From a virus (taxonomy: Duplodnaviria > Caudoviricetes): DNA of 32,691 bases. The notes below the pieces were generated by a model. It did not search any database, had not been told where the DNA came from, and saw only the letters and a list, made by a program, of their open reading frames with translations. Of this stretch, positions 3,571-30,807 are shown piece after piece; position 1 is the first letter of the stretch, and every line of letters starts with the position of its first letter. The position numbers and the translations under genes are program-made. Location: the IMG/VR virus record IMGVR_UViG_3300005805_000014, positions 1 to 32,691 of that record. One strand, 5' to 3'.

Positions 3571-3604
3571 TTTGCACTTTGTATTAAAGAAAGGTTTATC
3601 TTTG
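3571..3604 (+). promoter_or_regulatory. Bacteroidota sigma-A type early promoter
   Basis: -7 TATCTTTG (3597-3604) with upstream TTTG at 3571 or 3578. Confidence 0.7.
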
Positions 3605-3623
3605 ACAGACAAAACCAATTATT

Positions 3624-3821
3624 ATGTCAAAACAAGAACAAATCAAAGATTTAAGAGATCAATTGGATCGTCTTTATTCAGAAATGCCTGAAACATTTTT
3701 TGAATTAGAGCAGAGAAACAAAACTGCTTTTTTAGTTACTATGCAATTGGAGAAATTAGAGAATCCAGAATCTTATTATCAAAACATTAACCATTGGGAA
3801 AATTACGAAATTAGATTTTAA
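3624..3821 (+). CDS. Hypothetical early protein
   Basis: 65 aa; leader AAACCAATTATTATG. Confidence 0.75.
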   Translation: MSKQEQIKDLRDQLDRLYSEMPETFFELEQRNKTAFLVTMQLEKLENPESYYQNINHWENYEIRF

Positions 3822-4745: not shown

Positions 4746-4943
4746 ATGGTACTTGAAATCGAAAAAAGAACAGACATTTTTGGCAAGGTAGAATTTTTAG
4801 TATGGCTTAAAGATGCTCCTACATTTAATTTCAAATGTATGGCAGTATGCGACACAGAGGAACAGGCAGAGCAGGAGGTGGCTAATTTATTAGATAAACT
4901 GACTGAGCCAAAATCAGATATTATAAAACAAATACAAATATGA
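4746..4943 (+). CDS. Hypothetical protein
   Basis: Start moved to ATG 4746 after AAATCAACTATT; near-consensus -7 TACATTTA at 4723. Confidence 0.65.
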   Translation: MVLEIEKRTDIFGKVEFLVWLKDAPTFNFKCMAVCDTEEQAEQEVANLLDKLTEPKSDIIKQIQI

Positions 4944-5161
4944 TCGGTGAACTATTGAAAGCAGAAAGACAAAAACAAAACCTAACCCAGAAACAACTTG
5001 CTGAGAAATCAGGCATCAGTTTTGTTTCTATAAGCAGATTTGAAAATGGCACTCAACCAAGATTATCAATTATTACAAAAATCTTTGATGCGATGGGCAA
5101 GACGTTGCAAATTGAGGTCAAGGATAAAGCATCTGATGTATTGGATGTGGTTTCCAATTAG
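4940..5161 (+). CDS. XRE/Cro-family HTH regulator
   Basis: LKAERQKQNLTQKQLAEKSGISFVSISRFENGTQPRL. Confidence 0.92.
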   Translation: MIGELLKAERQKQNLTQKQLAEKSGISFVSISRFENGTQPRLSIITKIFDAMGKTLQIEVKDKASDVLDVVSN

Positions 5162-23891: not shown

Positions 23892-23911
23892 ATTAGCATA
23901 AATTTTATTTT

Positions 23912-24304
23912 ATGACTAACAACGAATTAATCAAAGTTGCAAACTTAATTGGAGCTTACATGGGTGAGCAAAAAACAAAAGGTCAGAAAAAGCTGTTTAA
24001 AATCTATGAGAAGTTAAAACCTGCCATAGATAAATATCAGGCTGATCTGGAGGATTTGAGATTGGATAATGCCTCTGTGGATGATAAAGGAAATCTCATA
24101 TTAGATGAGAAGGGGAACTATAAGTTTAATAAAGATGGAATTAAAAAGCTCAATAAAGAGATTAAAGAACTCGGAGAGAAAGAAATTGAGTTTAAGGTTA
24201 TCGAAGTTGTTAACCCTGAAGGCTTAGAGGATTATTGGTTCTTGGAAGGTTGGATCAATGGTGTAACATTAAATAAACCAGATGAGGAAATTATTGATCT
24301 GTAG
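23912..24304 (+). CDS. Hypothetical protein
   Basis: 130 aa, charged and helical. Confidence 0.7.
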   Translation: MTNNELIKVANLIGAYMGEQKTKGQKKLFKIYEKLKPAIDKYQADLEDLRLDNASVDDKGNLILDEKGNYKFNKDGIKKLNKEIKELGEKEIEFKVIEVVNPEGLEDYWFLEGWINGVTLNKPDEEIIDL

Positions 24305-24764
24305 TCTGTTCTTAACAGGATGCCTTTCTGAGCGAAAACTTGCAGAAACCTGTGCTGAAAAATTCCCTATTAAAGAGGAAATAAAAGAGGTTTTAGTAGT
24401 AGATACCATTCAGGCAGCTCCTGATACCATTCTGGTACATTTTAAGGACTCTATTTTGCCTGTAATTTGCCCACCAAGCAAAACCATTACCTTAACAAAA
24501 GAGGTCATTAAAACGCAGGAAAATACTGCTAAAATCGAAGCCTTGAAAATGAGGCATCAAAAAGAGATGGAAACTCTGCACATGGACTACCAAAACCATG
24601 AGGCTGCCCATATCAAAGAGATGGACAAATTAAAGAAAGAGTTAAACGATGTGGAAACCAAGTTGCAAAGAGTGAGGAAATTTAAACTTTGGTTTTACTT
24701 ACTCGTATCTGGTTTAATAGCTATTTTTGCAATTCGTAATAGTTGGTTAAAGTTCCCTCTGTAA
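24282..24764 (+). CDS. Lipoprotein with C-terminal TM helix (unimolecular-spanin topology)
   Basis: MRKLLICSLFLTG-C lipobox, coiled coil, and TM segment LWFYLLVSGLIAIFAI. Confidence 0.65.
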   Translation: MRKLLICSLFLTGCLSERKLAETCAEKFPIKEEIKEVLVVDTIQAAPDTILVHFKDSILPVICPPSKTITLTKEVIKTQENTAKIEALKMRHQKEMETLHMDYQNHEAAHIKEMDKLKKELNDVETKLQRVRKFKLWFYLLVSGLIAIFAIRNSWLKFPL

Positions 24765-24785
24765 GTACAGGGGGAATTTTTTTTT
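24752..24785 (+). terminator. Intrinsic terminator ending the late operon
   Basis: TTCCCTCTGT-AAGT-ACAGGGGGAA followed by T9. Confidence 0.85.
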
Positions 24786-24796
24786 ATCTGCCAATT

Positions 24797-24972
24797 AATG
24801 TAACTAATTACATTTTAAAGTACTTAAAAGTGTTATCTATCGCACTTTTCGACACTTAACGGATCAGATATAGACCAAAAATCATATTATTTGGGCGATA
24901 TATTGCACATTGGTGAGCTGAATAATTTTACTAATCGGCTCAATTAGTCACATAAATTGAAATATTTGTGAC
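24797..24972. repeat. Array of abutting, mutually unrelated imperfect palindromes
   Basis: About eight inverted repeats in ~180 bp of non-coding DNA (see findings). Confidence 0.8.
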
Positions 24973-24982
24973 AAAAATAAAT

Positions 24983-25013
24983 TTTGATATTTAAAAAAGA
25001 GTTTATACATTTG
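24983..25013 (+). promoter_or_regulatory. Bacteroidota sigma-A type early promoter
   Basis: TTTG(24983)-N19-TACATTTG(25006-25013). Confidence 0.8.
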
Positions 25014-25031
25014 AACTCTAAACCAATTATT

Positions 25032-25637
25032 ATGCAAACAGTAAAAATCAAAGGCAAGGATTACGTTCCTGTACACGAAAGAATCAAATGGCTCAATGAA
25101 AATTACGAGTACAATATTGAAACAGACTATCAGTATTTCGCTGAGAGGCGGATGTGGGTAGTCAAAGCCAAACTCACAATTAGCGGAGCTGACAGAGATT
25201 ACATATACACAGGTCATGCTCAGGAAATCGAATCAGACAATTACAGAGAAGTAAATCACACATCAGCATTAGAGAACGCAGAAACCTCTGCAGTAGGTAG
25301 AGCCTGTGCTATGGCTAATATCGGAATTGACACAGGCATTGCATCTGCTGATGAAGTAGAGAAAGCCATTAATCGTACTAAAGAACCCATTGATGAAGTA
25401 GGCGAGGAAAATAGATTGTACTTACTAACCCTATTAGAGAATACAACCTATGAGGAAAGACAAAAGGAACAACTCGCAATCAGGATCGGAGCATTGGTGA
25501 AGAATGAGGATTTCCAAAAGGCTCTGCTGAATCTACAATCAAACCAGATAGAGGATAAAGACAGAATTGCAATGGGCATGAACTACTCTCAATCTGACAT
25601 TAAGAAAACTTTAAAACGCAAAGAGAATGTTGGATAA
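25032..25637 (+). CDS. Single-strand annealing protein (Rad52/Sak-like)
   Basis: KGKDYVPVHERI...GHAQE...SALENAETSAVGRA. Start moved to ATG 25032. Confidence 0.7.
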   Translation: MQTVKIKGKDYVPVHERIKWLNENYEYNIETDYQYFAERRMWVVKAKLTISGADRDYIYTGHAQEIESDNYREVNHTSALENAETSAVGRACAMANIGIDTGIASADEVEKAINRTKEPIDEVGEENRLYLLTLLENTTYEERQKEQLAIRIGALVKNEDFQKALLNLQSNQIEDKDRIAMGMNYSQSDIKKTLKRKENVG

Positions 25638-25992
25638 ATACAATGATCACTACCAAAGGATGATTAAATATCTTGAGCAGCCTCTCCCGAAAGAGCCAGA
25701 GGAGCTCATTGAAAGATTAAATAATCTATCCATCCTGATGACAAGAGCAGGTAACTACATGACTGAATGCCAATACAGAATTGATGAGGTTGTAGATATT
25801 GAATGCAAAGTGAATCTGGAGCTATTAGATAAATTCTCTGCCTCTACATTCAACATGATGATCAAAGCAAAGGCAAAGGATTGGAACAGGCTAAAAACAG
25901 GATTTGAAAGGTGCTGCTCTGCTGCAGTTCACCAGATAGATGCAATCAGAACATTAATTTCATTTGAAAAAGCAAAAATTCAGATATTATGA
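25627..25992 (+). CDS. Hypothetical helical protein in the recombination module
   Basis: 121 aa, overlapping operon arrangement. Confidence 0.7.
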   Translation: MLDKYNDHYQRMIKYLEQPLPKEPEELIERLNNLSILMTRAGNYMTECQYRIDEVVDIECKVNLELLDKFSASTFNMMIKAKAKDWNRLKTGFERCCSAAVHQIDAIRTLISFEKAKIQIL

Positions 25993-26189
25993 ACTCTTAC
26001 CAACTACTACCACCACAGGAAAGAATGCTCATTATGGCAAAGATTTATCATCACATTTGGTATAGCGAAGGCAGATATTTCGAGATGCTAAATATGTTAG
26101 ATGAATGGGACAAGAACCCAACCAAAGAGGCTAAATTTTTAAATCAAATAACAGATGGAACAGAACTCAACGAAACCGAACTTTGCTAA
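25989..26189 (+). CDS. Hypothetical protein
   Basis: 66 aa, ATGA-coupled. Confidence 0.65.
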   Translation: MNSYQLLPPQERMLIMAKIYHHIWYSEGRYFEMLNMLDEWDKNPTKEAKFLNQITDGTELNETELC

Positions 26190-26361
26190 AGGTATTTTTC
26201 TGACTAAGAAACAAGGAAAGAAAGGCGAATTTTTAGAACTCTCTATTAAGAATGGAGAAGGTTACGAAAAATACGTTTGTTTTTTAAGCCAGAAAAAAGA
26301 TAAATTTGGCAATGAGCAGTACACTATTTACGAAAAAACTAAAAACGATTTACCATTTTGA
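26155..26361 (+). CDS. Small putative ssDNA-binding protein
   Basis: 68 aa, beta-rich, with an SSB-like C-terminal DLPF tip. Confidence 0.6.
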   Translation: MEQNSTKPNFAKGIFLTKKQGKKGEFLELSIKNGEGYEKYVCFLSQKKDKFGNEQYTIYEKTKNDLPF

Positions 26362-26792
26362 AACAGACCGAATCAACTAAATCAATTACGAGAAATTTTA
26401 TCCAATCTATCATCAAGGATCATTACGAAATGATTGGTAAACTTGAGAAACTATTGGATCAATTCCCTGTAGTTGAGAGGATAGCAAGGCACAAACGCAG
26501 ACCTGCTGAGGAAATAATCAATGCAGTTAACGAGGTATTTAATACGGATTGCACAGAACATAGCAGGAGGCAGCGAGTGGCTGACGCTCGGCATTGTGCG
26601 GTATTTATGCTCAGGCAATATACTGATCTAACCCTAAAGGAGATCGGAGAACAGTTAGGCTCAAATGGGCATCATACAACAATTTTACACAGTATTAAGA
26701 CTTGTAAAAACCTGATTGATATTGATGAGCATTTCGCAGAGAAATACAGTCAGACTAAAATTTTATTGGATTCTAAATTGCAATTAATTTAG
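26358..26792 (+). CDS. Protein with a DnaA C-terminal (domain IV) HTH
   Basis: SRRQRVADARHCAVFMLRQYTDLTLKEIGEQLG..HHTTILHS. Confidence 0.8.
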   Translation: MKQTESTKSITRNFIQSIIKDHYEMIGKLEKLLDQFPVVERIARHKRRPAEEIINAVNEVFNTDCTEHSRRQRVADARHCAVFMLRQYTDLTLKEIGEQLGSNGHHTTILHSIKTCKNLIDIDEHFAEKYSQTKILLDSKLQLI

Positions 26793-29510: not shown

Positions 29511-29818
29511 AACAAGAACACAAAGATTATTTAGAAGAACACATTGGCAACTACCATACAGTTCAGAATGGGTATGTCAGAAATTTAGATATTCAACTAC
29601 TCAATATGTATGAGCATATCTACAAACTCTATCTTGATCCTCAGTTTGTTTTGACTAAATGGTGCAGCAGTTGCGTAATGGAAATGCTCCAAAGACTCTA
29701 CAGGTATTATCTCAGTTTGCCTCAGGAGGTAATTCAGGATTTGCCAATTGTACAAGAAACTGTACAAGAACCTGTACAGGAAAATGTACCTAAAAAAAGA
29801 GGCAGACCTAAGAAATGA
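29507..29818 (+). CDS. Hypothetical protein with CxxC and a KKRGRPKK tail
   Basis: WCSSCV; 12-bp tandem repeat at 29749-29789; AT-hook-like end. Confidence 0.7.
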   Translation: MKQEHKDYLEEHIGNYHTVQNGYVRNLDIQLLNMYEHIYKLYLDPQFVLTKWCSSCVMEMLQRLYRYYLSLPQEVIQDLPIVQETVQEPVQENVPKKRGRPKK

Positions 29819-30807
29819 GAATATTAGCCATAACAAGTAAATTCTCAGGGGTAGGTTATCATCGGATAATGCTGCCTTTGGTGCATATGCAGAAAGACTA
29901 CTGCCTGATCACAGATACTTTGAGTGAGGAAATAGTTGCAAAAGGTTGGGACATATTCCTGATGAATAGGTTTCTGGCTGATATAAATATTCAGGACATC
30001 ATAGATTGGCGAAAAAAATATGGATTCAAATTAGTAGTTGATAATGATGATTTCTGGCAGTTAGATGCATCTCATGTACTTTATCAGAGATATGAGGATA
30101 ATGGCATAACAGATAGGATTTTGCAATACATAAAACTCGCAGACCTAAATACCTGCACTCACGAAAGACTCGCAGAGGCAATATATCAATATAATCCTAA
30201 TGTAGATATTTTGCCTAATGCCCTGCCATATGGAGAGGAGCAGTTTCTGGACAATAAAATAGAATCAGATAAACTCAGGTTATTCTGGGCAGGTAGCGGA
30301 ACACATGAAAAGGATTTAAAGATTCTAAAAGAGCCTCTCAAAAGATTGATTGGCAAGAATGTTAAAATGATATTGGCAGGGTATAATGAGAGCGAGGGGG
30401 AGATTTGGAATTACATGGCTTATTATTTCTCTGCAGGTAGAAAATTAGATACTCACATTTACAGGTACACAGATGTAACGAGGTACATGGCAGCCTATGC
30501 AGATTCTGATGTGAGCCTGATTCCTCTGGTTGAATCTAAGTTCAACGGAATGAAATCAAATCTCAAGGTTCTGGAAACTGCTGCTAAAAAGAATCCTGCC
30601 ATAGTTTCAAATGTCCATCCTTATAAAGATTTGCCTGTACTTTATGTAAATAAGCAGTCAGATTGGAACAAACATATCAACTCATTACTCAGAGATCAGC
30701 AGATGAGGATAGGGTTAGGTCAGGAGCTTTTTGACTATTGCTCAAAACATTACAACTTTAAAGAGATAAATTCTAAAAGAAACAGCATTTATAGTAAACT
30801 ACTCTAA
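29815..30807 (+). CDS. GT-B fold glycosyltransferase
   Basis: SGVGYHRIMLP, VVDNDD, ILPNALP, WAGSGTHEKDL and PL..FNGMKSNLKVLE. Confidence 0.85.
   Translation: MRILAITSKFSGVGYHRIMLPLVHMQKDYCLITDTLSEEIVAKGWDIFLMNRFLADINIQDIIDWRKKYGFKLVVDNDDFWQLDASHVLYQRYEDNGITDRILQYIKLADLNTCTHERLAEAIYQYNPNVDILPNALPYGEEQFLDNKIESDKLRLFWAGSGTHEKDLKILKEPLKRLIGKNVKMILAGYNESEGEIWNYMAYYFSAGRKLDTHIYRYTDVTRYMAAYADSDVSLIPLVESKFNGMKSNLKVLETAAKKNPAIVSNVHPYKDLPVLYVNKQSDWNKHINSLLRDQQMRIGLGQELFDYCSKHYNFKEINSKRNSIYSKLL
30765..30794 (+). promoter_or_regulatory. Putative late promoter for the lysis region
   Basis: GATAA-N16-CATTTATAG before ATG 30808. Confidence 0.65.

Follow-up and report, generated by a model that had tools for sequence, protein, structure and literature searches.

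The window, by which we mean the whole analysed stretch of 32,691 nucleotides, is a whole virus record (IMGVR_UViG_3300005805_000014, Caudoviricetes) with direct terminal repeats, the genome ends being formed by a 99-nt terminal repeat that lies inside a gene. Every called gene is located on the + strand, including terminase, portal, head and tail genes, a replication block and an endolysin, and PHROG and domain searches of these genes revealed neither an integrase nor a repressor-integrase module. The best DNA matches of the phage are lake metagenomes. The TTTG / TAnnTTTG shape of the promoter, which is that of the Bacteroidota consensus, suggests a Bacteroidota host. The largest non-coding gap of the genome measures 267 nt (24765–25031), the runner-up 120 nt, and lies, as a preliminary description of this DNA had stated, between a terminator and a promoter: a terminator-like hairpin and a promoter-like site flank an array of inverted repeats. 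The gap is bordered by the following features:

24282–24764, + strand: last of the late genes, encoding 160 aa and forming the left anchor; ORF call and translation, no PHROG family.
24749–24780, + strand: hairpin resembling an intrinsic terminator, with a T run; conserved in all relatives.
24974–25031, + strand: promoter-like region and leader, with TTTG at 24983–24986 and TAnnTTTG at 25006–25013, kept in all relatives.
25032–25637, + strand: first early gene, 201 aa, right anchor; PHROG 11717, a family without assigned function.

The product of the left anchor gene, matched in 22 viral loci, has a lipoprotein-like N-terminus and a hydrophobic C-terminus and may be spanin-like. The product of the right anchor gene, for which no match was obtained in Pfam, NCBIfam or PDB, may be Rad52/Sak-like. 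Read from the sequence, the promoter-like site at 24983–25013 has the form TTTG-19-TAnnTTTG. A second copy of promoter and leader is found at 3578–3648, where it precedes a block of small genes; it is 77% identical to 24983–25053. The early-middle block further encodes a stand-alone DnaA C-terminal HTH protein (26358–26792) and a glycosyltransferase (29815–30807). Searching 23900–26400 by blastn against annotated phages gave no match. The array itself, at E values up to 10, returned 26 weak records, of which the one examined, from a T5-like phage, fell inside a CDS and was dismissed as chance; likewise, the array of another phage yielded only chance-level blastn matches to plasmids. Rfam and ARAGORN found nothing in the array region.

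All nine inverted repeats named in the preliminary description are present at the coordinates given there. Between 24797 and 24972 we counted 6 perfect-arm pairs (arms of at least 6 bp, spacers of up to 16 nt), compared with 1.17 ± 1.09 in 2000 dinucleotide shuffles (p = 0.0025), and no other 176-nt segment of the genome reaches this number. The earlier expectation of a density above shuffled sequence thus holds, more weakly when 5-bp arms are admitted (8 vs 4.1 in shuffles, p = 0.055) or when a wider segment not picked by eye is taken (24781–25030, 7 vs 2.5, p = 0.017). The repeats had been read as eight or nine separate units, a number that comparison with related phages lowers. CCAAA-n10-TTTGG, GCGATATATTGC and GGATC..GACC are parts of a single 32-bp unit, which forms a perfect palindrome in relative L006 (loci are cited by such numbers), and the interleaved AAGTGT..ACACTT is absent from the closest relatives, L001 and L002. 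We therefore distinguish six units, to none of which a strand is assigned:

Unit A, 24797–24814: 7-bp arms, 4-nt spacer; closest clade only, degenerate in L001, L002 and L005.
Unit B, 24813–24829: AT-rich palindrome that overlaps A and C; in L001 and L002 it is a perfect 16-mer.
Unit C, 24826–24849: 7-bp arms around a variable spacer of 8 nt; found in 12 of the 17 distinct gaps of relatives as well as in arrays of other phages.
Unit D, 24869–24900: 9-bp arms with one mismatch here, 14-nt spacer.
Unit E, 24914–24942: 8-bp arms with one mismatch here and none in L001, 13-nt spacer.
Unit F, 24946–24973: 7-bp arms separated by an AT-rich spacer of 14 nt; frequent in viral contigs, both in arrays and inside phage genes.

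The phage could have built these sites for regulators of its own, as its genome encodes an HTH_3 protein (4940–5161) besides the DnaA-type HTH protein. We find this hardly credible, because units B–F each occur once in the genome at up to one mismatch (A is matched at one other place, within a gene), because E and D lead to cellular genes, as described below, and because close relatives lack the array.

A search with the downstream gene produced 21 viral loci with a readable gap in all 21, amounting to 17 distinct sequences. In all relatives the terminator and the promoter-like site are constant, and between them lie none to seven recognisable units in changing order:

Window phage: A-B-C-D-E-F.
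L001 and L002: ABCDE.
L005: ACD.
L006: DEG.
L007: FDEPIHG.
L009 and L016: CICME.
L010, L011, L012 and L017: LCEH.
L021: LCE.
L020: E.
L019: CFLKEHJ.
L014, L015 and L018: none.

Where no unit is present, 10 nt separate terminator and promoter; the other gaps span 107–341 nt. Shuffled gaps contain 0.03 units per gap. The unit definitions were taken from these same gaps, so that J, K, M and P, which occur only once, are circular and the shared units alone count as evidence. Units are packed edge to edge, covering up to 73% of a gap, and the density of perfect palindromes is significant in 6 of the 11 gaps tested, the one of the window included. In a phylogeny built on the downstream gene, with 17 rows and without L021, whose gene is cut off, C, E and F are found on both sides of the best-supported split, and the phages devoid of an array form one clade. 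A DNA contig from run X1, possibly the source sample, joins 24787 to 24972, the array's own borders, meaning that the array is skipped or replaced. Gain, loss and reordering of individual units, as had been predicted for related phages, are therefore seen across the 17 distinct syntenic gaps. The array is modular: arm sequence and spacer length are fixed, spacer sequence, order and number are free, and the units are dispensable. Several further features of the relatives were noticed. L007 (2150–2232) and L008 carry a tRNA-like piece with a T-arm right after the terminator and before the array, which ARAGORN does not call and for which the Rfam match is limited to the 17-nt arm. The more distant relatives, L007–L021, possess two small extra ORFs between the promoter and the homologue of the gene at 25032, both missing from the window's clade. 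A tandem-repeat motif of the L010-type arrays gave one viral match and no host link and was set aside.

We then considered whether the units act as DNA or as RNA. A multi-hairpin non-coding RNA had been offered earlier as an alternative, to which a single-stranded DNA structure, possibly also a Racr-like RNA mimic, may be added. The + strand of the array folds better than its shuffles (z −2.33, compared with −1.61 for the − strand), and G-U-compatible arm mismatches are in excess on the + strand (18 vs 7 on the − strand in 53 unit copies; these copies are related to each other, and the + strand is rich in G). We compared 27 distinct copies of C, D, E and F from the syntenic gaps, chosen at no more than 2–3 mismatches from the consensus: 169 arm pairs show no change, 16 have lost their pairing, 3 are G-U, and not one is compensatory. 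The spacers of these copies are 51–57% alike at a length that is fixed for each unit. In contigs L421, L422 and L159 units E and D interleave in both orders, an arrangement in which they cannot both form simple hairpins. The lack of compensatory changes together with this interleaving argues for DNA sites rather than RNA, and the reordering of units likewise disfavours one multi-hairpin RNA. The array also sits after a terminator and before a promoter and has no Rfam match. RNA contigs of a relative in run X15 end at 24722 and resume at 25033 with none over the array; as X15 and X18 belong to one study and contigs cannot show transcript ends, this was given no weight. An RNA or single-stranded structure is a very improbable reading. 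The statement that the units do not look like a CRISPR array agrees with the lack of a direct repeat family in the gap and of any Rfam match. The units are very probably DNA sites at which proteins bind.

Such sites might be used by host or prophage proteins to tune the adjacent early promoter, the phage thereby sensing the state of its host. In every case the array runs right up to the AT tract upstream of the promoter, and sites of host regulators (Spo0A, CtrA) are said to have been described on lytic phages. Against this reading, the unit adjoining the promoter differs among relatives (F, E, G, H, J or none), distances between a unit and the promoter shift by up to about 200 nt, the second promoter copy at 3578–3648 stands without an array, F and other motifs also occur inside coding sequence, and the partner genes described below are patchy accessory genes rather than global regulators. 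We regard promoter tuning as rather improbable.

Unit E provided the clearest link to cellular genes. An exact scan of GTDB with the E pattern (185,579 genomes) listed 123 loci, with about 2900 stretches estimated in total; Bacteroidota, Pseudomonadota and Nitrospirota are among the sources. Downstream of E, a DUF4172-Fic gene begins at a distance of no more than 120 nt in 67 of the 123 listed cellular loci (41 of the 80 whose flanks are long and 26 of the 43 whose flanks are short), compared with 3 of 120 viral loci. In 13 of the 41 long-flank loci that have such a start the distance to it is 0 and E overlaps the start codon. Of the 60 nearest ORFs that were scanned, 39 contain Pfam DUF4172; the other 20 of the 80 loci have no ORF close enough. 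Cellular E is often paired, with a second copy 34 or 44 nt away. Viral E sites mostly stand alone, 117 of 120 having no Fic gene in the flank. At two spacer positions that the query did not specify, 90% of host arms and 83% of viral arms agree with the host logo; since these non-query positions agree, viral and host E are the same motif and not chance matches. The E of the window shares arms and spacer length with the site at the DUF4172-Fic start, apart from one arm mismatch, and is firmly tied to it as a putative orphan copy of the palindrome that lies over the start of DUF4172-Fic-wHTH genes. Orphan E sites are not peculiar to phages, since 51 of the 123 cellular loci show no Fic match in the fetched flank either.

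The E partner proteins match the PADLOC SoFic profile along their length in 7 of 7 cases tested, with E values of 1e-39 to 1e-52. At 68 bits the DUF4172 family stays below the SoFic equivalog cut-off of 550, and true homologues reach 1e-100 or better. As judged from these scores the family is not SoFic proper, and its full-length Fic-wHTH architecture is SoFic-like. Many of 70 Bacteroidota Fic loci (L674–L743) are closely preceded by a long palindrome that belongs to the locus itself and, as judged by eye, changes from one subfamily to the next; E itself is present in only two, both of the same subfamily. Pairs of orphan E at native spacing, with no Fic gene within 1.5 kb, were noticed in the chromosomal loci L169, L178, L185, L210, L230 and L244; gene loss, regulon targets or chromosomal decoys are candidate explanations. 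Single orphan E sites (many among L046–L165, and L174) are intergenic in seemingly lambdoid enterobacterial prophages, near tRNA genes and holins, L174 lying beside a holin; this lambdoid setting was judged by eye.

For unit D the picture is less clear. A scan of metagenome contigs listed 120 loci, most of which fall within ORFs and were discarded as due to chance; copies of a single carbamoyl-phosphate synthase gene account for many of these. At 11 of the 120 loci D is located at a constant 97 nt past the stop codon of a wHTH-tailed Fic or HATPase_c_4 gene, and these sites precede hsdR, hsdM or a RhuM-like ORF, beside type I restriction-modification (R-M) genes. The contigs concerned are cellular, GC-rich, apparently non-Bacteroidota and probably related to each other. 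In 301 Bacteroidota genomes D had no exact match; allowing one mismatch gave 18 genomes compared with 5 for controls, a result that was rejected because 13 of the 18 represent one GC-rich match in what its matched letters suggest to be a conserved coding stretch. The Fic partner of D was present in 1 of 151 Bacteroidota genomes. We also abandoned the idea of one wHTH type common to the two partner genes, the tails not being significantly alike (27%, E 1.5). The link of D to toxin-like host genes appears loose and weaker than that of E, because the contigs are GC-rich and probably related, the tails are unalike and an exact Bacteroidota match is lacking. What stands of a cellular source for D is its position beside wHTH-tailed Fic or HATPase genes and type I R-M genes; a source in Bacteroidota is not supported, as only GC-rich, apparently non-Bacteroidota contigs were obtained.

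The cellular D sites are part of a conserved non-coding module of about 130 nt with several half-sites, which links variable wHTH-tailed genes to type I R-M genes (L308, L310, L348, L350, L366, L372, L388) and starts at the stop codon of two unrelated genes. It includes an IHF-like word and could be the end of a cassette. This raises the alternative that the units are recombination or cassette-end sites, such as integrase arm or attC-like sites, or passive footprints at a recombination hot spot that are of little use to the phage. Besides the properties of the D module, the frequency of orphan E pairs in chromosomes and the dispensability of the array are in keeping with it. Its probability is nevertheless low: the phage copies keep the arms and none of the host flank, they have AT-rich spacers, edge-to-edge packing and interleaving, and E lies over start codons, where an operator is expected. 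No integrase was found in the phage, nor was a recombinase linked to the cellular D module.

Units A, B, C and F were examined for their occurrence in viruses and hosts. We estimate about 740 stretches with F and about 360 with C in viral contigs. Another unit lies within 200 nt of F in 13 of 109 distinct viral matches, compared with 0.2 expected from shuffled flanks; C stands beside another unit in 4 of 104 (0.1 in shuffled flanks) and E in 6 of 103 (0.2 in shuffled flanks), some of the cases for C and E being syntenic relatives. Recurrence of units in other phages, which had been put forward as a check, is thus found for C, E and F. F was also noticed in phage coding sequence, namely in an N-terminal peptide (L596, L625, L652), in a 359-aa gene (L556, L566, L568, L593) and in polymerase-like genes (L580, L592, L604); in L596 the full non-coding consensus is placed inside a hydrophobic leader. 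Within long phage ORFs the non-coding spacer profile is kept in 19 of 32 cases, several of which come from the same gene families, and an in-frame VT-x5-VT can yield the arms by chance.

Host searches with these units were largely negative. C was matched in 7 of 251 Bacteroidota genomes compared with 6 for controls, which is background, three of them being one conserved enzyme gene. F was matched in 1 of 67, 2 of 261, 0 of 201 and 1 of 4 genomes, in all cases weakly; one weak match (L744) follows an XRE and Abi_2 cassette. No C, F or A was present in 234 defence-type host loci, and the flanks of 70 Fic, 30 AlbA_2 and 9 AbiEi loci contained no C, F, A, D, G, H or J. A host source for A, B, C or F was not obtained in the genomes searched, nor was a mobile-element gene found as partner of C or F. 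Samples of 200–300 genomes can miss a rare partner, because the E pattern itself is estimated at only about 2900 stretches in 185,579 genomes. Of the earlier proposal that the units match host defence-gene regions, the part concerning E upstream of Fic genes is upheld and the part concerning A, B, C and F is left without a host counterpart in the genomes searched. C-like palindromes, some of them in tandem, were seen in L472, L504, L511, L512 and L529 on contigs that are GVMAG-labelled or very large, and are probably a different phenomenon. A 12-nt tandem repeat coding for TPQx was noticed in the linker before the wHTH of a host Schlafen-HATPase gene (L774:410–450). This type of repeat was found in 36 distinct viral contexts, 6 of them outside long ORFs (2 beside F) and 30 inside phage ORFs that are of several unrelated kinds, and it varies in copy number; viral examples are L611/L791, L814, L821, L827 and L829. 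From these occurrences the repeat is likely a second class of borrowed motif.

A further possibility is that the sites switch autorepressed toxin or defence genes on against competitors, or neutralise proteins of rival prophages or satellites. Autorepression is the sole tested function of such a palindrome, in the case of the toxin CccR; F and C are common in viral contigs and were not found in the sampled host genomes, and single orphan E sites occur in gaps of prophages that look lambdoid by eye. Since the phage shows no integrase or repressor-integrase module, more toxin would harm the lytic cycle of the phage itself, and for C and F a mobile-element partner gene was not found. We consider both variants improbable.

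In summary, the array is real, modular and dispensable and appears operator-like, and sequence comparison ties one of its units firmly, and a second one loosely, to host genes of toxin-like type. The operator-mimic reading of the preliminary description is backed by density, modularity, recurrence and the match between E and Fic genes, and is weakened by the four of six units for which a host source was not found.

We propose that the array could be a swappable library of double-stranded DNA decoys that serves as an anti-defence measure against host toxins with a wHTH tail, a reading to which we give equal chances of being right or wrong. According to PMC9755527, CccR, a Fic-HTH toxin of Yersinia pseudotuberculosis, represses its own gene as a dimer through a long-spacer palindrome. 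CbFic2, a DUF4172-Fic-wHTH protein, is described in PMC10628234 as an AMPylase when monomeric and a deAMPylase as a DNA-induced dimer, its specific site being given there as not known. SoFic causes abortive infection (PMC12249575) and bacterial Schlafens are anti-phage tRNases (PMC13434031). By analogy, each site of the array would be bound by the wHTH protein of its neighbouring gene in the cell, as for CccR, and the partner proteins would be anti-phage effectors, given how they resemble SoFic and Schlafen. If a repressor were simply titrated, the defence gene would be expressed more strongly, and the decoy reading thus needs the toxin to be held off by its DNA site. Binding to the palindrome might hold the enzyme as a dimer, the state in which CbFic2 removes AMP instead of adding it. 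A replicating phage would offer tens of copies of each site, compared with one or two in the host, so that the toxin would be parked; the phage copies would also lift autorepression, and the higher toxin level may in turn favour the dimer. Units would be acquired and dropped as hosts gain or lose the patchy partner genes, and for A, B, C and F we assume that they bind further proteins of this kind. That the DNA site locks the toxin as an off-state dimer seems to us less likely than not: toxicity of CccR is reported to be independent of dimerisation (PMC9755527), which counts against the dimer step. Titration of an autorepressor could also simply raise the toxin level, which counts against the decoy reading as a whole.

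In a wider sense, bacteria may possess a large class of toxins whose wHTH tail reads a private motif located beside or within the toxin's own gene, the DNA acting as antitoxin, and phages may answer with expandable, protein-free libraries of such motifs in gaps and genes; this generalisation we hold to be less likely than not. If true, every array would document which defences a phage lineage has encountered and would supply baits for the partners of A, B, C and F; indeed, any unit that lacks a partner would be a ready bait for unknown defence proteins. About 30 bp of plain DNA able to disarm a toxin would constitute a new class of counter-defence that is invisible to gene-based surveys and cheap to gain. 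Both the holding-off and the setting-off of DNA-binding Fic and Schlafen-type toxins would become testable. E is moreover a candidate specific site for the DUF4172-Fic-wHTH family, the kind of site given as not known for CbFic2 in PMC10628234.

Comparison with known systems shows several partial likenesses. The CccR operator resembles E in that a Fic-wHTH toxin gene carries a long-spacer palindrome at its own promoter, and differs in sequence, in dimensions (10-26-10 vs 8-13-8) and in being an in-place site rather than an orphan phage copy (PMC9755527). CbFic2 has the same domain order as the partner genes of E (PMC10628234), and SoFic resembles their products by the profile match along the length, with the E family far below the equivalog cut-off (PMC12249575). 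In the accessible portions of PMC10628234 and PMC12249575 neither a specific DNA site nor a phage DNA counter-measure is reported for CbFic2 or SoFic. Like D, the site of RptR is a palindrome upstream of type I R-M genes, according to PMC12255303; it is a 6-bp site of other sequence, whereas D comprises 32 bp and tracks the stop codon of the upstream gene, and D was rejected as an RptR site because the motifs are different. A natural phage array of orphan operators, or a natural DNA sponge, was not found in the largely subscription-free full-text literature searched. The phage counter-defences known so far comprise proteins, RNAs and base modifications. Synthetic DNA sponges are said to soak up a DNA-binding protein with extra sites, as the array might, but they are man-made, and in the reported orphan antitoxins of phages (DarG-like) a toxin is neutralised by an orphan copy of its partner, which unlike the array is a protein. 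Spo0A boxes on phi29 and Nf and CtrA boxes on alphaproteobacterial phages are likewise reported as binding sites of host proteins in phage genomes; each serves one global regulator at fixed promoter or origin places, whereas the array combines many accessory-gene motifs in any order and is dispensable. In our gaps motif identity and distance vary and three distinct gaps lack an array, and C, D and F, at background in 201–301 genomes each, do not mark a core regulon. A parallel in principle is offered by the Racrs, reportedly RNA anti-CRISPRs made from solitary repeat units: there, too, a phage carries an orphan copy of the nucleic-acid element of a host defence and jams the protein that binds it, but Racrs are transcribed RNAs directed at Cas proteins, whereas the units described here appear to be DNA-like, multi-specific and arranged in arrays.
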